The notes beneath the pieces were generated by a model. It worked only from the letters and a program-made list of their open reading frames with translations. It was not told the DNA's origin and searched no databases. The translations under genes and the position numbers were made by a program. DNA of 64,000 nucleotides from Escherichia coli (lineage in GTDB: Bacteria > Pseudomonadota > Gammaproteobacteria > Enterobacterales > Enterobacteriaceae): NCBI RefSeq assembly GCF_003790525.1, contig NZ_CP033635.1; one strand, 5' to 3'. Shown here piece by piece: positions 47,651 to 48,763 of the stretch. Within the stretch, counting starts at the first letter, position 1. The number at the start of each line of letters is the position of its first letter.

Positions 47651-48472
47651 TTATTGTTTACTGTTGTATAACAAGGTGATAACGCCATCCACGACCTGGG
47701 CCATTTTCTGATAATTCAATCTGTCTGCGGTATCACCGGGCAAGTGGTATTGTTTATTACGATAAAAAGCGGTGTCGGTAATCATTACGGCGGGAATATC
47801 GTGTTGCCAATAATTAAGGTGGTCAGAGAAATCAATGCCGGGAATAAACCCTGGGGCATTCATAGAATAAACAGATAAATCCTGAGATGACAACAATGCC
47901 GCTTTTAGCTGACGAACGGCGTTGATATCCTGCATTCTGCCGACCACGGCAATAAAGTCTCCCCGATCGGGATAAAGCCAGGACATTGCCGGGTAAGGGT
48001 AATCCTGACTACCAGGCGCAGAGTCGTAATAGCCAATCATCTCCAGCGCTATCATTAATCTAACTGGACGCTCAAGCGAAGCTGCATGTACCGCGCTCCC
48101 CATTTCATCGCTACGAAAGAAGGGCGGTTCTTCCGACGCATAGGCGACCAGCTGCACGCCAGTTTTCGGTGCTTGCTGCTGTAACAAACGTGCCAGTTCG
48201 AGTAATCCTGCCACGCCACTGGCGTTATCATCCGCGCCCGGCGTATAGGTCAATTGATCGTTTTCATAACTGCTGGCAGAGTCATAGTGCGCACCAATAA
48301 TAATCAGCGGTCCATCGGCAGGACCATAATCAGCAACAATGTTTTTGTAGGGGCCACCCGTAATGGGGGCGTCCTGCGAGGTAACTCTGGCACCGCTACT
48401 GACAAAGACCTCTTTTATATACTCTGCGGACCTTTTCAGATTATCAATATTGTCGGCACTACGGGGATGCAC
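47651..48472 (-). CDS. yfbL: M28-family zinc peptidase YfbL, 5' end apparently frameshifted (possible pseudogene)
   Basis: Peptidase frame opens only at GTG 48472; M28 motifs present (GAHYDS, DNASG, ASEEPPF); the expected ATG and signal peptide lie upstream in a different frame (see findings). Confidence 0.6.
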   Translation of the reverse strand: MHPRSADNIDNLKRSAEYIKEVFVSSGARVTSQDAPITGGPYKNIVADYGPADGPLIIIGAHYDSASSYENDQLTYTPGADDNASGVAGLLELARLLQQQAPKTGVQLVAYASEEPPFFRSDEMGSAVHAASLERPVRLMIALEMIGYYDSAPGSQDYPYPAMSWLYPDRGDFIAVVGRMQDINAVRQLKAALLSSQDLSVYSMNAPGFIPGIDFSDHLNYWQHDIPAVMITDTAFYRNKQYHLPGDTADRLNYQKMAQVVDGVITLLYNSKQ

Positions 48473-48763
48473 AGTTTGTGTAAGATAACGAACTGTTTTT
48501 TCTAATTGCTCAGGACTTGCGTGTCGGGGCGTTGGCGGTAATGCATTGACCCAGGGTTGGTAAAAAATAATCAGAGGGAGTGAAAACAGAATTAATATAA
48601 TAAAAGCAAAGTTTATTTTTTTTCATATGCAAATTATTAATGGGTTGCGTTATTGAATCATTATTTGTTATAGGTTTCGATATTGTATTTTATCAAGATC
48701 AGCAGGATGATACAAAGAGTGTATTTTATGTCTGGTGCCTGAGTTTATTTAAAAGGATTTTAT

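Follow-up and report, generated by a model that had tools for sequence, protein, structure and literature searches.

How is a gene to be expressed when its start codon and its coding sequence lie in different frames? The question is raised by yfbL, which encodes a predicted metallopeptidase of the M28 family, in a 64,000-nucleotide stretch of Escherichia coli DNA (RefSeq assembly GCF_003790525.1, contig NZ_CP033635.1) that we refer to as the window. The native ATG of this gene is followed by a run of eight adenosines, and the peptidase is encoded in another frame. Most E. coli genomes that keep this 5' end have seven adenosines at the same place and the ATG in frame.

An earlier note, made from the letters of the window alone, offered two readings: a real frameshift or an error in sequencing the homopolymer. 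Two further readings have to be weighed. The run could serve as a switch or a site of utilised slippage, or the gene could be translated from the unusual start codon that RefSeq assigns to it. A literature search on yfbL returned no description of the polymorphism. Here we compare the window with the RefSeq genomes and ask which of these readings fits the distribution, inheritance and sequence context of the allele.

Results

The start codon and the peptidase frame

Read directly on the minus strand, the sequence runs ...TTTGCAT, the ATG, AAAAAAAA, TAAACTTTGC... (Table 1). The A run after the ATG is exactly eight nucleotides long and is followed by TAAAC. Translated from 48625, the peptidase frame gives a stop and then KKINFAFIILILFSLPLIIFYQPWVNALPPTPRHASPEQLEKTVRYLTQTVHPRS..., and it is open for 324 codons to the stop at 47651-47653; immediately after the TGA its translation opens with KKINFAFIILILFSLPLIIFYQPWVNALPP. 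The ATG frame encodes MKKNKLCFYYINSVFTPSDYFLPTLGQCITANAPTRKS, 38 residues in all, and is ended by a TGA at 48512-48510; this peptide is likely a by-product. The ATG, the eight adenosines and the TGA that closes the peptidase frame all lie where the earlier note had placed them.

That note also held that the peptidase frame can be opened only at a GTG. This is correct for ATG, GTG and TTG, the first of which is the GTG at 48472-48470. It is too narrow for near-cognate codons, several of which lie in frame 5' of the GTG (ATA 48616, ATT 48601, ATA 48598, ATT 48592, CTG 48589 and others), and RefSeq uses the first of these. The GTG is itself an unlikely start, as it has no Shine-Dalgarno sequence and its product would be without the signal sequence.

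Runs of eight adenosines are not rare in the window (9 observed, 6.2 expected). The longest A run in the window, an A9 at 47024-47032 on the minus strand, falls in the short intergenic gap that separates the stop codons of nuoN (46980) and yfbM (47048). A terminator-like hairpin with a T-run occurs at 48471-48496 (+), within yfbL and antisense to it; one such element was found where 0.3 were expected, and it probably arose by chance.

Table 1. Features at the yfbL locus, in window coordinates
Feature	Position	Strand	Basis
Native yfbL ATG, now out of the peptidase frame	48624..48626	-	Sequence; in frame and the annotated start in A7 genomes
A8 homopolymer, site of the +1 insertion; the wild-type A7 forms codons Lys2-Lys3 and the first base of Ile4	48616..48623	-	
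TGA in the peptidase frame, overlapping the ATG and shutting the frame upstream	48623..48625	-	Translation
Out-of-frame ORF from the native ATG, 38 codons (MKKNKLCFYY...TRKS) plus TGA	48510..48626	-	
yfbL CDS as given by RefSeq on the identical sequence: ATA start, 321 aa, WP_059327135.1, M28 family metallopeptidase	47651..48616	-	
Predicted signal sequence, residues 2-28 of the intact protein	48542..48622	-	Hydropathy and the -3/-1 rule only
Longest ORF with a canonical start: GTG, 273 aa, without signal sequence or Shine-Dalgarno	47651..48472	-	
Peptidase_M28 domain, residues 95-317 of the restored protein, uninterrupted	47675..48343	-	PF04389, E 2.9e-25

The gene is yfbL

Three lines of evidence identify the gene as the M28 peptidase yfbL. 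The restored protein, with one A removed, matches the Pfam family Peptidase_M28 (Table 1); in an NCBIfam search it reached no equivalog cut-off. It contains the motifs GAHYDS (111), GADDNASG (130), ASEEPP (163), LEMIG (194) and YHLPGD (293). The H, D, EE, E and H motifs are kept, aligned with those of 2EK8, and from what is known of the family we take the H, D, EE, Asp/Glu and H motifs to supply the metal ligands. Lastly, the gene lies between yfbK and yfbM, adjoining nuoN, which is a conserved arrangement in E. coli. What this orthologue does not have is an uninterrupted ORF from its native ATG.

The N-terminus encoded upstream in the peptidase frame has KK, an 18-residue hydrophobic core (I4-F21) and V-N-A before Leu29. 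To judge by hydropathy and the -3/-1 rule, this N-terminus fits either a Sec signal sequence or a signal anchor.

Downstream of yfbM the window differs from K-12: nuoN follows yfbM directly (the 46981-47650 region), whereas in K-12 yfbM is followed by yfbN. The K-12 genes after yfbM are missing in the window lineage, and likewise in SMS-3-5, CFT073-type and ST648 genomes.

The lesion is a one-base insertion

We aligned the 5' region of yfbL from nine genomes. Five carry A7 (K-12 MG1655, an ST648 strain, AF5, E01 and LS45), and in these the ATG opens an ORF of 323-324 aa. The other four carry A8 (the window, SMS-3-5, WP4-S18-ESBL-09 and strain 401656). Since the intact genes have A7 and the window has A8, the lesion is a +1 insertion of A, and it falls inside a mononucleotide run by comparison with all five intact references. 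One fewer A had been predicted to bring the ATG, the signal peptide and the peptidase into a single frame, and the five A7 genomes have precisely this arrangement. Nor is the frameshift a chance pattern, because the in-frame stretch upstream is homologous to the N-terminus of intact yfbL.

Frequency and recurrence of tract lengths

How common is the A8 allele? We searched with a 59-nt query containing five forced mismatches, at every variable site, so designed that A8 genomes score 91.5% and A7 genomes 89.8% whatever their flank. It covers 2491 records, those in which this 5' region is retained, and undercounts alleles with extra SNPs. The A8 form (59 nt) was found in 141 of the 2491, including CFT073, Nissle 1917 and its derivatives, ATCC 25922 and clone D i2/i14. 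The A7 form (58 nt) accounts for 1826 clean records, and the remainder are mostly A7 with one SNP; in all, about 94% of genomes with this 5' end carry A7.

The A8 allele is found on at least four flanking haplotypes. Exact 99-nt matches place it on the CFT073-type flank of CFT073 and Nissle 1917 in 88 records and on a K-12-like flank in 9; a further 30 records have the flank of the window type and at least one has that of the ST648 type. Tract length also varies among close relatives. On the K-12-like flank there are, in addition to A7 and A8, the lengths A6 (23CRST047), A9 (2014EL-1343-2) and A12 (CM2010-0578/1), and LS45 provides another example within the clade of the window. Some of the singleton lengths, A12 among them, could be assembly errors. 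The existence of A6, A9 and A12 alleles alongside A7 and A8 marks the A run as a recurrent indel hotspot. The coding sequence of WP4-S18-ESBL-09 (A8), on the ST648-type flank, is the same as that of the ST648 strain (A7).

The A8 allele is inherited

The lesion is common to independent isolates of the lineage. A perfect match to the 1141-bp yfbL region of the window, A8 included, is present in 29 RefSeq complete-genome records (28 genomes). SMS-3-5 is one of them, and their sources are humans, chickens, dogs, a pangolin, fish and river water. Over 24 kb around yfbL, 13 genomes match the window at 100% identity; 31 records reach 99% or more, and the next-best genomes stand at 98.8%. LS45 is the sole A7 member of this clade. 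It differs from the window by this base alone across the 24 kb, which reflects either reversion or an assembly error.

The chromosomal yfbK-yfbL segment recurs at 100% identity in NZ_CP058715.1, a 126-kb record from M172-1 that is labelled a plasmid. This second copy could be a plasmid duplication or a misassembled or mislabelled contig.

Age of the frameshifts and dispensability of yfbL

Where the gene is kept it is under purifying selection: dN/dS among intact yfbL alleles is 0.07-0.35. On the A8 lineages the ratio is uninformative, because A8 coding sequences are the same, or nearly the same, as those of the nearest A7 allele. The window equals LS45, and WP4-S18-ESBL-09 equals the ST648 strain; CFT073 and AF5 differ at five sites. 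From this near-identity we infer that the frameshifts are young. The ORF downstream of the run is free of secondary lesions in 29 of the 30 A8 records of the clade and in CFT073, the exception being SBF22, in which IS1B is inserted in the middle of yfbL on the A8 allele of the window clade. Given the youth of the frameshifts, this absence of secondary decay is uninformative about function.

The gene is often lost outright. Of 5351 matching genomes, 3291 cover at least 80% of yfbL and about 2060 cover less. In an O157:H7 strain (PNUSAE147325) there is no yfbK, and what is left of yfbL is shortened, has lost 4 nt from the signal-sequence region and is annotated 'frameshifted'. In F5505-C1, yfbK is truncated beside an IS1 transposase; the same genome carries an A8 yfbL. 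That one lesion should recur in several lineages is explained by the readiness of the A run to gain or lose bases and by the frequent loss of this gene in E. coli. The purifying selection on intact alleles, for its part, means that loss throughout a clade requires either neutrality in the niches concerned or a benefit.

Discussion

The A8 allele as an inherited frameshift

The analysis shows a lesion that is heritable and recurrent, an ORF that is intact downstream of it, and no signals for recoding. We put at roughly 0.8 the probability that A8 is a real +1 frameshift allele of yfbL, derived from A7 and passed on vertically, in which expression would be lost or strongly reduced. The course of events would be as follows. 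Replication slippage would add one A to the A7 run at codons 2-4. Translation that begins at the native ATG would then yield the 38-codon out-of-frame peptide and terminate. The ORF of the metallopeptidase, which may be secreted or membrane-anchored, retains its signal sequence and catalytic domain and is without a canonical start. Full-length protein would be made only on the rare occasions when a ribosome initiates at the ATA 10 nt downstream or slips by +1, or when one A is dropped during transcription. A ribosomal +1 shift at this site should be unfavourable, since the A-site codon would change from AAU, which is common, to AUA, which is rare.

How much protein might be made in these ways? 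Initiation at AUA in E. coli reporters is 0.02-3% of that at AUG (10.1101/063800). E. coli RNA polymerase slips detectably on runs of seven or more T, and more for A, with an insertion frequency of 0.39% at an A7 run (PMC6260861). These published values suggest that the A8 allele would be null or strongly hypomorphic, with leakiness at the percent level at most. Against a loss of function it counts that ATA initiation or slippage could yield a useful amount of protein.

Is the A run a functional switch?

One alternative holds that the A run is functional: either the peptidase is phase-variable, switched on and off by changes in tract length and possibly driven by phage, or the frameshift is rescued by utilised transcriptional or ribosomal slippage. 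The allelic series A6/A7/A8/A9/A12, the four or more haplotypes that carry A8, and LS45 as a possible A8-to-A7 revertant within its clade all speak for this reading, as does the rescue of A/T-run frameshifts by slippage in other systems (PMC1088944, PMC4256274). Set against these points is the length of the run. At seven or eight nucleotides it is shorter than fast-switching tracts and under the slippage threshold of about 9 nt (PMC1088944, PMC6260861); selection against A/T runs is likewise evident from about 9 nt (PMC1088944), and the known cases of utilised slippage involve runs of 9-11 nt (PMC1088944, PMC4256274). Distribution argues in the same direction: A7 is the state of about 94% of genomes with this 5' end, entire clades are fixed for A8 rather than mixed, which argues against rapid switching, and irreversible deletion of the gene in many lineages fits plain dispensability. 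We consider a functional switch or utilised slippage very unlikely.

Programmed slippage in particular would be expected to show a run of about nine or more A/T (PMC1088944, PMC6260861), conservation of the frameshifted arrangement among orthologues, and a stimulatory RNA structure or Shine-Dalgarno-like element nearby. The run has 8 nt, the arrangement in about 94% of orthologues is A7 and in frame, and neither kind of element was found near the tract. RNA folding around the tract gives a minimum free energy of -3.4 kcal/mol (z +1.23), less structured than shuffled controls, and Shine-Dalgarno pairing was sought before the ATG, the ATA and the GTG and found at none of them. For these reasons we reject programmed frameshifting or slippage as the main reading.

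A phage could nonetheless give loss of yfbL a value. According to a 2025 preprint, knocking out yfbL makes K-12 resistant to phage N4, and sensitivity returns when the gene is supplied on a plasmid (10.1101/2025.09.29.679331), a result that also favours the switch. It follows that recurrent yfbL loss could sometimes be of benefit. The present evidence fits just as well with a dispensable gene being lost neutrally. A bolder form of the idea is that the A run is a low-rate, reversible switch of an envelope peptidase required by N4, and that A8, A6 and A9 alleles, including those of the CFT073/Nissle 1917 and SMS-3-5 clades, represent selected phage resistance and not neutral decay. We regard this as improbable.

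Is the gene translated from ATA?

A8 alleles are annotated in RefSeq as intact M28 metallopeptidases, with no pseudogene flag. Taken at face value, the annotation says that the gene is functional and that adequate amounts of a 321-aa pre-protein, short of only Met-Lys-Lys, are made from the ATA at 48616. This ATA is in frame, lies 10 nt 3' of the native ATG behind the same AU-rich leader, and opens an intact ORF whose product would keep the hydrophobic core and the V-N-A site; initiation at AUA is possible at a low level (10.1101/063800). That level is the difficulty, given the reporter values cited above. Initiating ribosomes should moreover be captured by the cognate ATG 10 nt upstream. No Shine-Dalgarno sequence precedes the ATA, and both lysines of the signal n-region would be missing from its product. 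Comparison lends the ATA no support either, as the arrangement is derived rather than conserved: in orthologues the start is the ATG that lies 9 nt 5' of this codon (10 nt in A8).

The annotation itself is inconsistent. CFT073 is annotated like the window sequence, with an ATA start, and for the A6, A8, A9 and A12 alleles on the K-12-like flank RefSeq places the start at an internal GTG, codon 13, to give 306 aa in each case. Because the choice of start differs between haplotypes, it reflects start picking driven by homology and is not evidence of initiation. The earlier note had reasoned that intact annotated references with the identical A8 context would count against a lesion. Such references do exist in RefSeq, but they owe their status to a choice of annotation, which is not proof of protein. 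Adequate translation from the ATA seems to us very unlikely.

Is A8 a sequencing error?

The other half of the choice offered at the outset, that the strain really has A7 and that A8 is a homopolymer error of sequencing or assembly, has next to nothing left to recommend it: homopolymers are prone to error, LS45 is an A7 clade member that differs by that base alone, and singleton lengths such as A12 might be artefacts, but the identical A8 in 29 independently deposited records (28 genomes), the A8 of 88 records with the CFT073/Nissle flank, which include repeated independent assemblies of the same strains, and a pattern that tracks phylogeny are not what errors would produce, and we reject the idea because the allele follows clades through many independent assemblies. 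The real frameshift is the half that stands, on the A7 references and the shared A8.

Implications

On the sequence evidence the yfbL A8 allele is an ordinary homopolymer frameshift polymorphism, probably one with loss of function. CFT073, Nissle 1917, ATCC 25922 and SMS-3-5 are probably without functional YfbL, despite being listed in RefSeq with an intact gene (from the ATA or the internal GTG). Comparative and knockout work on yfbL, for example on its reported role as a host factor for phage N4, should allow for A8 alleles. The locus further provides a clear natural case of frameshifts arising repeatedly at an A7 run, in a gene that E. coli can do without. Its relevance is mostly to annotation and to the biology of reference strains; it does not open a new mechanism.

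Comparison with known systems

The closest relative is the K-12 gene itself (b2271), a predicted M28 metallopeptidase in the same yfbK-yfbL-yfbM order and 96.1% identical over the 1141-bp query. The two genes share the start-codon context, the signal sequence and the M28 domain; K-12 yfbL has A7 and an uninterrupted, ATG-initiated ORF of 323 aa, whereas the window has A8. Leucyl aminopeptidases of the M28 family (1AMP of Vibrio/Aeromonas proteolytica and 2EK8 of Bacillus) resemble YfbL in sequence across the metal-binding core, where the H, D, EE and H motifs align, although they are distant from it (E about 1e-9 to 1e-11, partial coverage).

Frameshifts rescued by slippage are known from Shigella mxiE (T9), Citrobacter rodentium tssM (A11), Thermus thermophilus dnaX (A9) and the poly(A) tracts of endosymbionts. 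The window allele resembles the mxiE, tssM and dnaX type in that its frameshift lies within an A run and that an mRNA shorter by one A would again encode the full-length protein. It differs from them in having a run of only 8 nt, in being a minority, derived allele, and in having no stimulatory hairpin (PMC1088944, PMC4256274, PMC6260861). The likeness is greater to pseudogenes and hypomorphs caused by homopolymer frameshifts that replication slippage creates. Although the remaining ORF of yfbL is pristine and the annotation pipeline gives it no pseudogene flag, the allele has in common with that class a single-base indel in a run, near the 5' end of the gene, that is both heritable and recurrent.
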